Source: an uncultured delta proteobacterium (lineage in GTDB: Bacteria > Desulfobacterota > Binatia > JACPRU01). Taken from it: 64,000 bases of DNA. Positions within the stretch are counted from its first letter, which is position 1; each line of letters starts with the position of its first letter. Below are positions 1,995 to 64,000 of this stretch, piece after piece. The notes beneath the pieces were generated by a model. The model made no database searches and was not told the DNA's origin. It was given only the letters and a program-made list of their open reading frames with translations. The translations under genes were made by a program, and so were the position numbers. The stretch spans positions 192,001-256,000 of the forward strand of contig CAVUWD010000019.1 of the NCBI GenBank assembly GCA_963745025.1, in the 5' to 3' direction.

Positions 1995-3750
1995 ATGGAT
2001 AGTGACAAGGACCAACATTCATCCGCGCCCAAACGCGAGGAGGTGGAAGATTTCGGGGCGCTGTTCGAAAACAGCCTGAAGACCATCAAGCCCGGGGAAG
2101 TCGTACGAGGACACGTCGTGCAGGTGACGCGCGATTACGTCACGGTCGACATCGGCTACAAGTCCGAAGGCCAGATCCCGATCCAGGAGTTTCTCGGCCG
2201 CGACGGCGACGTCGACGGTGCACGAAGGCGACGAGGTCGACGTCTACTTCGAGTCGAGCGACAGGAGAGAACGGCGGCATCGTCGCTGTCGCGCCAGAAG
2301 GCCGAGCAGCTCAAGGTGTGGCGCGACATCGAGCAGGCCTTCGAGGCGCGACGGCGCCGTCGAGGGCACGATCGTCGGCAAGGTGAAGGGCGGCCTCAAG
2401 GTCGACATCGGCGTCGCCGCGTTCCTGCCCGGGCTCGCATGCCGACATCCGTCCCGCCCGCAATCTCGATCGCTACATCGGCCAGCGCGGCCGCTTCGCC
2501 ATCCTCAAGTTCAATCGCTCGCGCGGCAACGTGGTCGTTTCGCGCCGCGCCGTGCTCGAGCGCGAGCGCGACGGCGCTCAAGGAAGAGACGCTCAAGGTG
2601 CTCGAGGAGGGCGTCATCCTCGAGGGCACGTGAAGAACATCACCGACTACGGCGCCTTCGTCGATCTCGGCGGCATCGACGGCCTGCTGCACGTCACCGA
2701 CATGTCGTGGGGACGGGTGTCGGCATCCGTCCGAGGTGCGTCAACGTCGGCGACAGCGTGAAGGTCGTCGTGCTCAAGTACGATCCCGAGCGCGAGCGCG
2801 TCTCGCTCGGCATGAAGCAGATCATGCCCGATCCGTGGAGCGACGGTCGCGCGAGCGCTATCCGATCGGCACGCGCGTGCACGGCAAGGTCGTGAGCCTC
2901 ACCGACTACGGCGCGTTCGTCGAGCTCGAGCAGGGCGTCGAGGGCCTGGTCCACGTCTCCGAGATGTCGTGGACCAAGCGGGTCACGCATCCGCTCGAAG
3001 GTCTTGCGAGGTGACAGGAGGTCGACGTGCAGGTGCTCGACGTCGATCCGCAGAACCGGCGCATCTCGCTCGGGCTGAAGCAGACCGAGCCGAATCCGTG
3101 GGAGATGGTGCGCGTCAACCACCCGGTCGGCAGTCACGTCACGGGGCAAGGTGAAGAGCATCACCGACTTCGGCATCTTCGTCGGGGTCGACGAAGGCAT
3201 CGACGGGCTGGTGCACGTCTCCGATCTCCACTGGACGAAGAAGATCAAGCACCCCTCCGAGCTCTACAAGAAGGGCGACGACGTCGAGGCGGTCGTGCTC
3301 GGCGATCGACGTCGACAACGAGCGCATCTCGCTCGGCATCAAGCAGCTGACTCGACGATCCGTGGGCGACGCGTCCCGCGAGCGCTATCCCGTCGGCAGC
3401 CGCGTGCACGGCAAGGTGACCAGCGTCACCGACTTCGGCGTCTTCGTCGAGATCGAGGAGGGCATCGAGGGTCTCATCCACGTCTCGCAGCTCTCGACCG
3501 AGCGCGTCGACAAGCCGCAGAGCCTCTACAAGCCCGGCGACGAGGTCGAGGCCGAGGTCACCAGCATCGACCCGCAAGGAGCGCCGATCGGCTCTGTCGA
3601 TCAAGGCGCTGCGTCGCTCGCGAGGAGCGCGCCGAAGTCGAGACCTACCTTCGTCGCGAACGCGAGAACGCGCGCTTCTCGTTCGAGGACATCCTGAGCG
3701 AGGAGTTGCCGCTCGACCGCGACGAGAACGCCGAGACGAAGAAGCCCTAG
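1995..3750 (+). CDS. rpsA: 30S ribosomal protein S1, multiple frameshifts (probably sequencing error)
   Basis: S1 repeats spread over several frames: [78 protein letters not shown]. Confidence 0.95.
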
Positions 3751-41404: not shown

Positions 41405-41590
41405 TACGGTAGGAGGTCGGGTTTCGCACGAAGATATGGGATACGAGGCATCGTCACCCTCGCGCGCTTCGGTTGCGGTCGCGAGGCTGCGTTGCGTGAA
41501 CTACGGTAGGAGCTCGGGTTCCGCACGAAGGTATGAGATACGAGGCATCGTCGCCAGCGCGCGTCTCGGTTGCAGTGCGAAGCTTCGTTG
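41405..41590. repeat. Diverged 97-bp tandem duplication between trpC and trpF
   Basis: TACGGTAGGAG..CGGGTT.CGCACGAAG.TATG.GATACGAGGCATCGTC starting at 41405 and 41502. Confidence 0.9.
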
Positions 41591-55923: not shown

Positions 55924-57151
55924 CGCCGCGCCGGCGCTGGCGCGGGCGCGCGGCGCGGCTCCGAGCGGCGTCGCCTCGGCGCCGCAGCCGCCGGCAATCC
56001 GCCTGGCGGGCGTGCGCAAGCGCTTTCGCAAATACACGGTGCGCGGCGGCTACACCACGCTCAAGACCTCGCTCGTGAAGCGCATGTTTCGCGCGAAGTT
56101 CCCGGTCGGCAACTACCTCGACGTGTTGAACGGGATCGATCTGGAGATCCCGGCCGGGCTCACGCTCGGCATCATCGGGCGCAACGGGTCCGGGAAAAGC
56201 ACGCTCCTGAAGATCATGGCGGGGATCATCCGGCCGGATCAGGGCGAGGTCGAGGTGCGGGGGCGGGTGTCCCCGCTGATCGAGCTCGGCGCCGGCTTCC
56301 ATCCGGAGTTTTCGGGACGGGAGAACGTGTATCTCAACGGGTTGGTCATCGGCATGAGCAAGGCCGAGACCGAGGAACGCTACGATTCGATCGTGGAGTT
56401 CGCGGGGCTCGCCGACGTCATCGACGATCCGGTACGCACGTACTCGTCGGGGATGTACATGCGTCTCGCCTTTTCGGTCGCCGTGCATGCCGACCCCGAG
56501 GTGTTGTTGATCGACGAGATCCTCGCGGTCGGCGACGAATCGTTCATCGGCAAGTGCTACGAGCGGATCGCGGCCTTTCAGGAAGCCGGCAAGACGATCG
56601 TCATGGTCTCGCACGGCCTCGAGTCGATCGAGCGGTGGTGTCACGAGGCCATCTGGATCGACGAGGGACGCATCGCCGCACGGGGCTATCCGGCCGAGGT
56701 GGTACGTCTCTACCACGCGGCCATCACGCCGGCACAGAAGGGCCCCCTGCGCGAGCGATCGCTGCGCGACAGCCTGACGCCGGGAAGGCTCGCCGCGACG
56801 ATCCGCGTGGTGGATCCTCCGGTACGCACGTCCGAGCCGTGGCACTACGTGATGCGAGCCCTTCTCGAGGTCGAGAACGTCGGCGACACCGTGTGGCGCG
56901 CTCTGCCGCCCACCCGACGCGGTACCGTCATGGTGGGCGGTCGACTCCACTCGGGCGAGCGTTTTCTCGGCGAGATCCTGCGGGCGCTGATCCCGCGTGA
57001 CGTCTATCCGCGGGAACGCGCCTCTGTGGAGCTCAAGTTCAAGCTGCCTGGGCCCGGACGCTACTTGGTGGACGTCGATCTCGTCGACGAAGGAATCTGC
57101 TGGTTCGTCGAGCACGGGTCGCAGACGCTTCGGCTTGAAATCACGATCTAA
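55889..57151 (+). CDS. wzt: Polysaccharide ABC transporter ATPase with C-terminal Ig-like domain
   Basis: GRNGSGKST, YSSGM, DEILAVGD, VSH; beta-sandwich tail of about 120 aa. Confidence 0.93.
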   Translation: MATATPSPSSSDAAPALARARGAAPSGVASAPQPPAIRLAGVRKRFRKYTVRGGYTTLKTSLVKRMFRAKFPVGNYLDVLNGIDLEIPAGLTLGIIGRNGSGKSTLLKIMAGIIRPDQGEVEVRGRVSPLIELGAGFHPEFSGRENVYLNGLVIGMSKAETEERYDSIVEFAGLADVIDDPVRTYSSGMYMRLAFSVAVHADPEVLLIDEILAVGDESFIGKCYERIAAFQEAGKTIVMVSHGLESIERWCHEAIWIDEGRIAARGYPAEVVRLYHAAITPAQKGPLRERSLRDSLTPGRLAATIRVVDPPVRTSEPWHYVMRALLEVENVGDTVWRALPPTRRGTVMVGGRLHSGERFLGEILRALIPRDVYPRERASVELKFKLPGPGRYLVDVDLVDEGICWFVEHGSQTLRLEITI

Positions 57152-57159
57152 GTGCCGAT

Positions 57160-57429
57160 GTACCCGTTCAGTCTTCGTAGCAACGCCGCGAACTCCGAGG
57201 AGCGCTGGAGTTTCCCGCCGGGCCGTACTCGGCCCGACAGGAAACTCCAGCCACCGCGCGGAGGCGTCCCCTCCTGCGTAGCGCGGAACGCAACAACCCT
57301 CGGCGCTGGTCTATTGCCTTCCGCGCTCCGCGCGGTTGCGGTCGGTCGTGATCGACCCGAGTACGGGCCGATCATGACCGACCGCGCTCTCCGCCTTGCC
57401 GAAGGGTCGTGCGAAAACTGAGGGGGTAC
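57160..57429. mobile_element. Structured multi-hairpin intergenic element, copy 1 (270 bp)
   Basis: Complementary ends, three internal hairpins, homology to 63059-63309, flanking GTGCCGAT / GTGCCGGT. Confidence 0.8.
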
Positions 57430-58458
57430 GTGCCGGTCCGTATCGAAGAGATCATCGAGCGTATCCGACGGGAGATCGCCGACGAGGCAAACGCCGCGCC
57501 GACCGATCGTTCCGCTCCCTCCGACGTCGACCGATTGCCGGCGATCGCCACGCGGCCGGAGCTCGACTACCTGAATCGGAACTGGCACCTCTTCGATCCG
57601 CTCTCGGAGATGCGCTCGCATCGGCGCTGGTTTGGCCCGCTCGTGGTGAGCTTGCGTTGGAAGCTCCGCCGGGTGGTGCTCGGGGTGCTCGATCGCTACT
57701 TCGAGAAGGAGCGGCTGTTTCTGATCGAGCTCGTGCGCTTCAACAATGCGCTCGCCGAGCGCAGCGACCGGCTGCTTCGCGAGGTGACGGAGCGCACGAA
57801 AGCGGTCGCGGAGCGAAACGACCTCTTTCTCGGCGCCCTCGACGTTCGCCTCGAGGCGCTCGAGGCGCGGGAGCAGTTGCGCCGGGTGCTCGTGGATTCG
57901 CCCCGGGGGCTCGCACCGCAGGCCGGCGACGCCGAGGAGTCCGTGCTCGCGGAGATGGCGATCGCGGTCGGCGCCGGTCTCGGGGAGCGCGTCCGGCCGT
58001 TCGGCGACTATCTCCGTTCCCCGGGGTCCGTTCTCTTGCTCGGTTGCGGCGACGGCGAGGTCTTCGAGGCGCTCGACGGAATCGCCGCGACGGGCGTGGA
58101 GGCGAGTGCGTCGCTGGTCGACGAGTGTCGCTCGCGGGGATTCGCGGCCGAGGTCGCGGCGCTGCGCTCCTACCTGGAGGCGGTGCCGGAGGGCTCGCTC
58201 GGGGGTCTGGTGATCACGCGGGTCGTCGATCGCCATCCACTCGCGGCGTGGCCGCGCCTCGTCGCAGCGGCATGGCGGTCGCTGCGGCCCGGGGGAATGG
58301 TCCTGTTCGAGGGGCTCGCGGACGAGGGCGCCGCCGCCCGGCTGCGCTGGCTCGCCGGGCGGCAGCGGTTCACGGTCGTCGATGCCCGCGAGTTCCCCGG
58401 TGATGGACGCGCGCCGCGGGAGCGCGTCCTCGTCTGTCGGCGTGTCGAGGCGACGTGA
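57430..58458 (+). CDS. Coiled-coil plus SAM-methyltransferase-like protein (putative chain terminator)
   Basis: Helical heptad-like N-half; VLLLGCGDGE, LRPGG; directly after wzm-wzt. Confidence 0.7.
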   Translation: MPVRIEEIIERIRREIADEANAAPTDRSAPSDVDRLPAIATRPELDYLNRNWHLFDPLSEMRSHRRWFGPLVVSLRWKLRRVVLGVLDRYFEKERLFLIELVRFNNALAERSDRLLREVTERTKAVAERNDLFLGALDVRLEALEAREQLRRVLVDSPRGLAPQAGDAEESVLAEMAIAVGAGLGERVRPFGDYLRSPGSVLLLGCGDGEVFEALDGIAATGVEASASLVDECRSRGFAAEVAALRSYLEAVPEGSLGGLVITRVVDRHPLAAWPRLVAAAWRSLRPGGMVLFEGLADEGAAARLRWLAGRQRFTVVDAREFPGDGRAPRERVLVCRRVEAT

Positions 58459-62883: not shown

Positions 62884-63058
62884 GATAGGGCTCGAGCGCG
62901 GCTTGCCAAGGTCTCATGTCGTCGAGACCGAGATGCTCGAGGTGCCGGCGGGCGCCCACCCGAGCTGGCCGCGCGCGCCGGTGGTCATGATCGGCCCCAC
63001 GCGACGAGCCTTAGCGGAACGCCGGCAATCGATGCTACAGGAAGCGTCGTTTGAAGAT

Positions 63059-63309
63059 AATGCCTCAGTCTTTGCCTCCGGCGCTCGAGATCGCGAAGCG
63101 CTGGATTTTCCGGTCGGCCCGTACTCGGGTCGACCGGAAAATCCAGCGACCGCGCGCTAGCGCGGAAGGCAATCGACCAACTCGCGGGTTATTGCCTTCC
63201 GCGCTTCGCGCGGTTGCGGTTGGTTGTGATCGACCCGAGTACGGGCCGATCACAACCAACCGCGCTCTCAGGTTCCGAAGCGCTTGAGGCGAAGACCGAG
63301 GCGCTCCCT
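63059..63309. mobile_element. Structured multi-hairpin intergenic element, copy 2 (251 bp)
   Basis: Complementary ends, same hairpins as copy 1, flanked by perfect TTTGAAGAT repeats. Confidence 0.8.
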
Positions 63310-63310
63310 T

Positions 63311-64000
63311 TTGAAGATCCTCCACGTCGATCCCGAGACCTCCTTTGGCGGCGGGGAGCGCCAAGTCGCGGGATTGATCCGCCATCTTGCGAAGCGCGGT
63401 CACGAGAGCATTCTCGCCGCCCCCGCCGAGTCGCGGCTCGCCGCGATCGTTCCCGCTGCGGATGCGCGTCTGCGGCCGCTCGCGATTCGGAGCGACATCG
63501 ATCTGGTCGCGGCTCTCCGGCTGCGGCGGCTGGCTGCGGTCGAGAGCCCGCACATCGTTCATTTCCACACGTCTCGGGCGCACGCGATGAGCCCCTGGCT
63601 TCGGCGGTATGCCGGGCGAGCGATCGTGACTCGGCGCATGGATTATCCGCTCCACCCGGGGCCCTGGACGAACCTTCTCTACAACCGGTCGGTCGCGGCC
63701 GTGGTTGCGATCTCCGAAGAGGTGCGCCGCCGCCTGCTCGCTGCCGGAGTGCGCTCGGAGCGCGTTCGCGTCATCCACAGCGCGGTCGAGCCACCGGCAG
63801 GTTTGCCCGGCCGCGCGGGCCGTGCGGCCGCCCGCAAGCGCTTCGGCATCGACGACGAGCTGGCGATCGGCGTCGTCGCGGCGCTCGAACGACGCAAGGG
63901 ACACGACGTGCTCTTCCGTGCCCTCGCGCGCCTCGCGCCAGCGGGCGGGCTGCGGTTTTGCTGCGTGGTCTGCGGTGCTGGCTCGGAGCGGGCGGCCCTG
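63311..64000 (+). CDS. Glycosyltransferase family 4, runs off the window
   Basis: TTG start; MKILHVD...GGGERQ, HIVHFH, VAIS, ALERRKGH. Confidence 0.9.
   Translation, partial: MKILHVDPETSFGGGERQVAGLIRHLAKRGHESILAAPAESRLAAIVPAADARLRPLAIRSDIDLVAALRLRRLAAVESPHIVHFHTSRAHAMSPWLRRYAGRAIVTRRMDYPLHPGPWTNLLYNRSVAAVVAISEEVRRRLLAAGVRSERVRVIHSAVEPPAGLPGRAGRAAARKRFGIDDELAIGVVAALERRKGHDVLFRALARLAPAGGLRFCCVVCGAGSERAAL

Follow-up and report, generated by a model that had tools for sequence, protein, structure and literature searches.

Correia, ERIC and RUP sequences are bacterial MITEs. REP and REPIN sequences are intergenic palindromes that lie in inverted pairs, show compensatory change, and are present in tens to hundreds of copies. 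To our knowledge, the elements of the REP/RAYT and IS200/IS605 types have neither target duplications nor terminal inverted repeats of ~20 bp.

The systems closest to the element analyzed here are a MITE and a group of insertion sequences. MITEPsy1 of Pseudomonas syringae, which is IS5-like and has a 4-nt duplication, was trapped during transposition (PMC3189936). ISDge4 of Deinococcus geothermalis belongs to the ISBst12 group and is described as having the ends GTGACTACTCAGCA and GTAACTGCTCAGCA, a transposase of 449 residues, and an 8-bp direct repeat (PMC12898284). Repeats of 8 bp are also given for other members of the IS66 family in a second report (PMC3281130). In addition, two reports on inverted repeats state that template switching between the arms homogenizes the arms and inverts the spacer (PMC8604942, PMC8794818).

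Here we describe selfish DNA of a known kind that forms a new family, with ends of the IS66/ISBst12 type. Like MITEPsy1 and other bacterial MITEs, the element is short, non-coding and intergenic, has ends like those of a resident insertion sequence and a target duplication typical of the family of that insertion sequence, is present in some close relatives and absent in others at a given site, and has a strong potential for foldback. Unlike MITEPsy1 (IS5-like, with a 4-nt duplication), it is of the IS66 type and makes an 8-bp duplication. A search of the full-text literature, ISfinder and subscription journals aside, found no published IS66-type MITE with three internal covarying hairpins. The family is a new example of a MITE that is linked to the single-ORF IS66 elements and has a high copy number; its host is an uncultured bacterium of sediment and wetland. 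Because its ends match those of the insertion sequence, 8-bp duplications flank it, and a related genome has an empty site, we read it as a MITE moved in trans. We consider it probable that an IS66-family transposase moves it and that the arms of its hairpins are matched at the level of DNA, and not via a strand-specific transcript.

Two copies of a MITE in the window

The DNA that we analyzed, referred to below as the window, is a stretch of 64,000 nt (G000:C19:192001-256000) of the source assembly, G000, which has 5.65 Mb in 20 contigs and a G+C content of 66%. An initial annotation of the window had marked 57204..57385 as an element with a conserved fold. The hairpins are where that annotation placed them. 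However, the 182 nt that it flagged are only the core of a longer element that has terminal inverted repeats and is flanked by 8-bp duplications (Table 1). The unit repeated in both hairpin-rich stretches of the window is a non-coding element of 240-270 bp. It has no coding capacity; the ORFs that cross the window copies are mere extensions of neighboring frames.

Table 1. Positions of the two MITE copies and their parts, numbered from the first nucleotide of the window.
Feature	Coordinates	Strand	Remarks
Left target-site duplication, copy 1	57152..57159	.	GTGCCGAT; 7/8 match to GTGCCGGT, directly outside the terminal repeats
MITE copy 1, whole	57160..57429	+	270 nt; profile match end to end
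Left terminal inverted repeat, copy 1	57160..57180	+	Degenerate; aligned with insertion-sequence ends and other MITE ends
Hairpin A, copy 1	57204..57251	+	Loop TACT
Hairpin B (central), copy 1	57254..57335	+	Outer stem CCGCGCGG/CCGCGCGG, inner stem AGCGCGGAA..TTCCGCGCT
Hairpin C, copy 1	57338..57385	+	Loop AGTA
Right terminal inverted repeat, copy 1	57409..57429	-	From alignment of ends
Right target-site duplication, copy 1	57430..57437	.	GTGCCGGT; the GTG start codon of a methyltransferase gene downstream lies within it
Left target-site duplication, copy 2	63050..63057	.	TTTGAAGA; 8/8 match to 63310-63317
MITE copy 2, whole	63058..63309	+	252 nt; best match of the covariance model, 190 bits
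Hairpin A, copy 2	63100..63147	+	From sequence and fold
Hairpin B (central), copy 2	63150..63213	+	From sequence and fold
Hairpin C, copy 2	63216..63263	+	From sequence and fold
Right target-site duplication, copy 2	63310..63317	.	TTTGAAGA; the TTG start codon (63311-63313) of a family-4 glycosyltransferase gene downstream lies within it

Copies 1 and 2 are identical in 84% of the columns of a pairwise alignment. A repeat finder reported an 80-nt direct repeat between them (93% identity) and reported each copy as a long imperfect palindrome; the palindrome arms of copy 2 are at 63097-63156 and 63207-63266 and are 72% complementary. Copy 1 begins with GTACCCGTTCAGTC and ends with GAGGGGGTAC, and its hairpin B holds a private insertion of 18 nt.

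The base changes that the initial annotation had listed between the two copies are present in the sequence. Hairpin C differs by two C-G to T-A swaps and one G-T to G-C change, and hairpin A by one G-C to T-A swap. The tips CCGTACTCGG (hairpin A) and CCGAGTACGG (hairpin C) are reverse complements of each other, and the central AGCGCGGAA..TTCCGCGCT hairpin exists as it was quoted.

Contigs from three public metagenome runs (X1, X3, X4) enter copy 1 from both flanks, indicating that its junctions are not an artefact of the assembly. In the four metagenome runs examined, no contig spans or skips copy 1, and the metagenome depth goes up over hairpin C, as expected of a repeat.

Copy number, ends and target duplications

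The family is dispersed in the source assembly. BLAST found it at 88 places and a first profile model found 96 non-overlapping loci. The count rose to 102 loci with an end-to-end profile, and 41 of these run from terminal repeat to terminal repeat (228-352 nt). All but one of the 96 loci (95/96) are outside ORFs as called by a crude, GC3-based caller that was made for this analysis. A degenerate version of the tip pattern, compared to a wider set of genome contigs, detected the family at 7 of 75 loci among the matches listed, all in one MAG; most of the matches listed were single chance matches. A search of a plasmid collection for the element gave no match.

We mapped the ends of the element using 60 aligned copies with 70 nt of flanking DNA. 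Conservation goes well past the hairpins; its left limit is GTAAYGCCTCAGTCTTCGCC and its right limit is the reverse complement of that sequence. These are the consensus ends of terminal inverted repeats of ~20 bp that begin with GTAA.GCCTCAGTC. The ends of the MITE are GTAAYGCCTCAGTC... The repeats are degenerate in many copies, and the terminal helices are just 59-74% paired.

An 8-bp duplication flanks many of the end-to-end copies. It is perfect (8/8) in 9 of the 41 and matches at 7 of 8 positions in another 9, compared to 0.6% (8/8) and 2.2% (7/8) when flanks were deliberately mis-paired. In the other 23 of the 41 copies, no clear duplication was detected within 3 nt of the expected offset. 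Some of these 23 belong to a subfamily in which the right end is 8 nt longer, and its duplications are therefore displaced beyond the offsets that were scanned. Overall, the copies are short (MITEs are under about 600 bp), non-coding and dispersed, with inverted ends, a duplication of fixed length, and filled and empty sites in relatives, and there is an autonomous element with matching ends. These are the features of a MITE that can be judged from sequence.

A resident IS66-family insertion sequence with matching ends

The putative partner was located by searching the source assembly for the end motif outside the MITE family. It is an insertion sequence of 1,882 bp at G000:C19:80230-82111, with two more copies in tandem on contig C6. 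It has perfect 19-bp ends, GTAAGGCCTCAGTCTCCGT, and a flanking 8-bp duplication, AACGATCG. Its one ORF of 468 residues (G000:C19:80635-82038) matches the Pfam families PF03050 DDE_Tnp_IS66 (6.2e-38) and zf-IS66 (1.1e-06) and the NCBIfam model NF033517, 'IS66 family transposase' (1.4e-64; 218.5 bits, cut-off 180). A small ORF upstream scored 27.0 bits with DUF6788, just below the cut-off of 27.2. The transposases of the three copies are 100% identical.

A single long DDE_Tnp_IS66 ORF, ends of the form GTAA/GTRA, and an 8-bp duplication are characteristic of the ISBst12 group. Judged from these features, the insertion sequence is a member of this single-ORF group of the IS66 family. Its layout is equivalent to that described for ISDge4: ISDge4 has the ends GTRACTNCTCAGCA and the resident insertion sequence has the ends GTAAGGCCTCAGTC..., each with one IS66-family transposase and an 8-bp duplication.

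The ends of the insertion sequence and the MITE agree at 15 of the first 16 positions, and the match extends over GTAA.GCCTCAGTCT. In contrast to the resident insertion sequence, the MITE is 240-270 bp long, has no ORF, is present in ~100 copies (versus 3), and has an interior without counterpart. Hairpins A, B and C were not found in the insertion sequence; the best score obtained there with the covariance model (described below) was 12.9 bits (E 0.07). Since only the terminal repeat is common to the two elements, the interior of the MITE appears to be of separate origin, and we infer mobilization by the 468-residue transposase from the ends alone. In the mechanism that we propose, this DDE transposase would bind the terminal repeats of the MITE in trans, and insertion would occur via staggered cuts 8 bp apart.

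The MITE family is also present in a second genome of the same genus (G001, 82% complete). The only IS66-family relatives detected there have 31-32% identity and different ends (GTAACCGTTCAC). This result, like the absence of the hairpins from the insertion sequence, counts against the proposed mechanism.

Comparison of sites in related genomes

Insertion sites of the MITE differ between the two genomes of the genus. In G001, the sequence around copy 2 is uninterrupted, with one TTTGAAGA in place of the element and its two duplications (a clean empty site). For copy 1, the place corresponding to the duplication reads TAAGTGCCGGTCCG in G001, and a different insert of 187 nt with its own inverted ends is 3 nt away. 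We examined 15 copies in G001, and for 10 of them both flanks were collinear in the source assembly. Seven of these 10 have no family member at the corresponding site. The other three sites are occupied in the source assembly, where one partner is just a remnant of 65 nt, another is partial, and the third is rearranged. There was one usable orthologous pair, L211 in G001 and a copy on contig C13 of the source assembly. The two differ at three compensated pairs in hairpin A, and they appear to belong to different subfamilies, so that gene conversion or a second insertion is inseparable from change in place.

The comparison at the level of the taxonomic family covered eight genomes, the whole order in the genome set searched. 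The covariance model recovered copies in G000 and G001 and diverged relatives in two other genera, with six matches in G005 (best E 1e-12) and one weak match in G004. A BLAST-type query at the level of the class matched 0 of 33 genomes; BLAST also overlooked the relatives within the family that the covariance model found.

Conserved fold of the element

Folded as single-stranded DNA, each whole copy is far more stable than expected. The value for copy 2 is -111.9 kcal/mol (z -15.4) and that for copy 1 is -92.4 kcal/mol (z -8.9), and none of 200 shuffled sequences folded as well as either. The predicted fold has four branches: the terminal repeats and linkers pair to form an outer stem, and hairpins A, B and C branch off from it. 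The same four-way shape is predicted for divergent subfamilies.

Of 59 copies that include hairpins A, B and C, we used 56 to measure covariation and omitted the three with large insertions (L114, L130 and L137). Two-sided change was seen in 30 of the 51 pairs that RNAalifold predicted. We also tested a structure of 87 pairs, those common to the minimum-energy folds of two copies. In the alignment, 87.7% of cells in this structure were paired, compared to 80.9% after column shuffles (0 of 500 reached the observed value) and 33-39% with slid partners. Pairing was strongest in the two flanking hairpins: 96.3% in hairpin A, where 17 of 22 pairs have two-sided change, and 96.9% in hairpin C, where the number is 10 of 17. 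The helices of hairpin B are mostly invariant and have little covariation. The initial annotation had inferred a conserved fold and had named a covariance model on many copies as the check. With many copies, and with such a model (169 positions and 72 pairs of the core), the conserved fold is confirmed: in hairpins A and C together, 27 of 39 pairs have two-sided change and 96-97% are paired, indicating that compensatory change conserves the self-complementarity of both.

We counted changes on a FastTree phylogeny by Fitch parsimony, scoring a compensated double change wherever both partners changed on one branch and pairing was kept. There were 74 compensated double changes and 56 pair-breaking single changes in hairpins A and C. 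In the outer helices, these numbers were 13 and 170. On terminal branches, stems had 2.3 changes per column and unpaired positions had 6.6; that is, stems changed approximately three times more slowly. The slower change of the stems would also be expected from selection on resident copies.

The tips of hairpins A and C are one 20-mer in opposite orientations, facing inward from each end of the element. They are far more conserved than the lower stems; exact occurrences of CCGAGTACGG number 56 among the C hairpins and 25 among the A hairpins. One non-Watson-Crick position is conserved as well, as G·T on the plus strand in hairpin A and as G·T on the minus strand in hairpin C. In a few copies the tip is flipped (two C hairpins and one A hairpin among 56 of each, or 3 of 112). 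The inverted arrangement of the tips fits a transposon that has inverted ends and is therefore two-fold symmetric.

How the arms might be kept matched

The layout of the element is symmetric about its center: terminal repeat, linker, hairpin A, palindrome B, hairpin C, linker, terminal repeat. Either strand could fold into the four-way structure, with the terminal repeats paired together. We suggest that the arms are kept matched in two ways. First, a change on one arm would be copied to the other, by template switching or by repair in an extruded hairpin. Second, lineages that keep the foldback would go on transposing. The first of these resembles the published cases of template switching, in which one event reportedly can alter both arms and can invert the spacer. 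Compensated double changes are common here and 3 of 112 tips are inverted, although the individual switching events are putative. Intra-hairpin conversion had been given in the initial annotation as an alternative to a conserved structure, and the flipped tips are consistent with it. However, template switching leaves the conservation of the tip sequence unexplained. Because the tips are more conserved than the lower stems, arm-to-arm correction alone is insufficient. Judging from the sequences, this conservation points to sequence-specific recognition by some factor, and the tips may have a role in single-stranded DNA or in recognition by a protein.

It is possible, but in our view rather unlikely, that the hairpins as a whole are a structure-dependent cis-element for mobilization, with the tips of A and C serving as recognition sites, identical in sequence and opposite in orientation, for the transposase or for a factor of the host. 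An extruded or single-stranded four-way junction would unite the terminal repeats, and selection among transposing lineages would keep the stems and tips matched. The conservation of the tips relative to the lower stems, the four-way fold predicted in divergent subfamilies, and the excess of compensated double changes in A and C over those in the outer helices would all be expected. In addition, the tip 10-mer occurs 82 times within the family and 20 times outside it, where 24 are expected. It is not enriched elsewhere and is therefore specific to the element and not a general operator. Furthermore, at one locus in another genus (L175 in G005), the loops are TTTTT in hairpin A and AAAAA in hairpin C; they have different letters and are still reverse complements of each other. 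These loops would fit a functional pairing, and they would also fit a common binding protein.

Several findings argue against such a cis-element. The partner insertion sequence has no such hairpins, and copies with flipped tips occur. The most recently amplified subfamily (ends GTGATGCC...) has A·C mismatches at two positions of hairpin C, in 6 and 8 copies, indicating that perfect pairing is unnecessary for spread. Lastly, two relatives in G005 (L182 and L185) have intact ends and an 8-bp duplication (TGCGATCT in L185) without a full hairpin C.

A more specific version is that hairpins A and C are matched, structure-specific recognition modules that let an IS66-family transposase, or a cooperating host factor, move a very short element; we regard this as a doubtful proposal. 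It would include two further ideas. One, which also seems to us improbable, is that the element acts as a folded four-way DNA junction with both ends paired. The other is that the loops co-evolve as reverse complements, as TACT/AGTA in the source genus and TTTTT/AAAAA in the other, and we hold this with little confidence. If true, such modules would mean that transposition in the IS66 family, which is poorly understood, has a step that depends on structure.

Effects on neighboring genes

Both window copies are inside a polysaccharide-synthesis gene cluster, exactly at the start codons of a methyltransferase gene and a glycosyltransferase gene. From their positions in the sequence, the copies may change the coupling and translation of these two genes, and sister genomes differ at both sites.

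We consider it very unlikely that the host keeps resident copies for a benefit, either because the outward terminal repeat supplies a Shine-Dalgarno-like GAGG or because the element buffers mRNA decay between cistrons. At both window copies, the downstream start codon is inside the right duplication and a GAGG is 4-11 nt upstream in the terminal repeat. Among 26 element ends with a gene-like frame open across the boundary, the first start codon is 0-8 nt from the end in nine, although this denominator is biased to short distances. However, the majority of copies are away from start codons, and the high turnover between the two species argues against long-term retention.

Strand symmetry and the possibility of a structured RNA

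In the initial annotation, the paired tips had been interpreted as protein-recognition or kissing loops in a structured RNA or single-stranded DNA motif. We regard it as highly improbable that the element functions as a structured RNA, whether from the outset or by later change, either as a cis-acting mRNA element or as an sRNA, with A and C as such loops. The strong covariation is what would be expected of an RNA, hairpins A and C have complementary loops, and both window copies are within co-directional gene clusters and would be co-transcribed with them. Nevertheless, the orientation of the element relative to genes is random. Between co-directional genes, 25 copies are in the same orientation as the genes and 26 are in the opposite orientation. 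Further copies are between divergent genes (27) and convergent genes (18).

Neither strand folds better than the other. With RNA parameters, the mean fold is -157.3 kcal/mol for the plus strand and -159.2 kcal/mol for the minus strand. The more stable strand is plus in 23 and minus in 33 of the 56 copies (p = 0.11). In the stems of A and C, with the conserved wobble position left out, G·U pairs are no more favored than A·C mismatches (37 versus 38). Searches with the covariance model gave a hit on each strand of every copy.

The loops give no support to kissing. The predicted loops of the formed stems A and C are 4 nt, which is short for a loop-loop contact. When the A loop is TGCT (8 copies) or GATT (6-7 copies), the C loop stays AGTA, indicating an absence of covariation between the two loops in the source assembly. 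A search of the window with Rfam gave no match at gathering thresholds. The best matches below threshold were to generic families of long hairpins and were far below their cut-offs (for example, Ms1, with 31 versus 162 bits). Scans of the element revealed neither a sigma-70-like promoter nor any terminator-like site in excess of chance. Finally, the terminal repeats, the target duplications and the empty site indicate that the element spreads as DNA. Thus, the data give no support to an RNA structure whose loops kiss or act as a recognition pair.

For genome scans, this family is a warning. Compensatory change in an intergenic repeat, even when it is strong and statistically clean, is insufficient on its own as evidence for an RNA gene; the covariation seen here is in a DNA transposon in which both strands are alike.

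Counted separately, hairpin A has 28 G·U and 17 A·C, and hairpin C has 9 G·U and 21 A·C. These counts hint that each hairpin favors the strand reading inward from its own end of the element. However, they are dominated by a few changes that are subfamily-wide, and one subfamily contradicts the trend, so we give the hint no weight.

Comparison to REP elements and a further repeat fragment

It is exceedingly unlikely that the element is REP/REPIN-like and moved by a Y1 (RAYT-type) transposase, or is an ORF-less IS200/IS605 derivative recognized via subterminal single-stranded DNA hairpins: its intergenic palindromes form an inverted pair and the source assembly has two Y1_Tnp genes above the Pfam cut-off, but the element has 8-bp duplications and terminal inverted repeats of ~20 bp, no hairpin core adjoins either Y1 gene (best E 0.13), and its ends match an IS66-family element instead. 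The element is like REP and REPIN sequences in having inverted pairs of intergenic palindromes, compensatory change and a similar copy number. It is unlike them in its terminal inverted repeats, its 8-bp duplications and the location of its copies, none of which is beside a Y1 transposase gene. Identity as a REP/REPIN with a RAYT, considered as a candidate, is contradicted by the target duplications, and no Y1 gene is adjacent.

The initial annotation had also listed a partial inverted fragment at 62983-62997, upstream from copy 2. The fragment is an exact 15-mer as stated. It is a putative member of the family; the family profile gave only -0.7 bits there. A diverged form of this stretch is present at the equivalent place in the related genome, G001.

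Insertion of the MITE at start codons

For both MITE copies in the window, the insertion falls exactly on the start codon of the gene downstream. Before insertion of copy 1, the site was a TAAGTG junction, in which the stop codon of an ABC-transporter ATPase gene lies directly against the GTG that starts a methyltransferase gene. The duplication at copy 2 contains the TTG start codon of a family-4 glycosyltransferase gene. In each case, the outward-facing end of the MITE has a GAGG 4-11 nt upstream of the start of the downstream gene. Genome-wide, 26 MITE ends are crossed by an open gene-like frame, and at 9 of these the first start codon is ≤8 nt from the end of the element, although the denominator of 26 is biased.

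The place occupied by copy 1 contains a different insert, 187 nt long, in the same-genus genome G001 (locus L108, orthologous to window ~57152). This insert lies 3 nt away from the position of copy 1; it shows a 7-8-bp duplication, TAAGTGC, and inverted ends of its own, approximately CTTTCGGAAATACGG. A search with the insert gave no match in the genome under study at E 1e-6. It looks like a second miniature element, unrelated to the MITE, that used nearly the same target.

Locations of the MITE copies and the other features described
Feature	Location
MITE copy 1	window 57160-57429
Copy 1 insertion point	window 57149-57159, 57430-57440
MITE copy 2	window 63058-63309
Copy 2 insertion point (duplication)	window 63310-63317
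187-nt insert, G001	L108:2275-2461
Diverged MITE relative, G005	L185:1461-1700
Diverged MITE relative, G005	L182
Tandem insertion sequences (outside the window)	L032, G000:C6:484416-488183
75-nt units	window 41405-41479, 41502-41576
~262-nt tandem repeats	window 2600-3520
Planctomycetota repeat, among the matches listed	L050, L053, L057, L061, L067, L080, L084, L087, L089, L090, L092, L095, L099, L105

Related elements and a hairpin found in Planctomycetota

Two diverged relatives of the MITE are present in G005, a genome from another genus of the same family. Both have GTAACGCCTCAGTC ends and an 8-bp duplication and retain hairpins A and B, with a short unrelated stem where hairpin C would be. 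No IS66-family transposase similar to those of the genome under study was found in G005 (84% complete) at E 1e-20.

Among the matches listed, Planctomycetota records, named as Phycisphaerales and Tepidisphaerales MAGs, contain a separate family of multi-hairpin repeats. The first hairpin of this repeat is the 20-nt TCGATCCGAGTACGGATCGA, which is also present in the MITE. After it come a second hairpin, whose loop is GTAC, and a third, CATGGGC..GCCCATG. The first hairpin may be shared with the MITE by chance, through convergence or through common descent.

Tandem IS66-family insertion sequences

On contig C6, two IS66-family insertion sequences are arranged head to tail, ~15 bp apart. The two encode identical transposases, suggestive of either a tandem-dimer intermediate or activity in the very recent past.

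Other repeats in the window

The window also contains two copies of a 75-nt unit, 97 nt apart and 87% identical. This unit had 13 BLAST matches over the genome under study (77-100% identity) and nothing at threshold in Rfam. It is another dispersed repeat family, with no relation to the MITE. Elsewhere in the window, the repeat finder reported four tandem repeats of ~262 nt (families D1-D4), which may be the repeated domains of a putative ribosomal protein S1-type gene.
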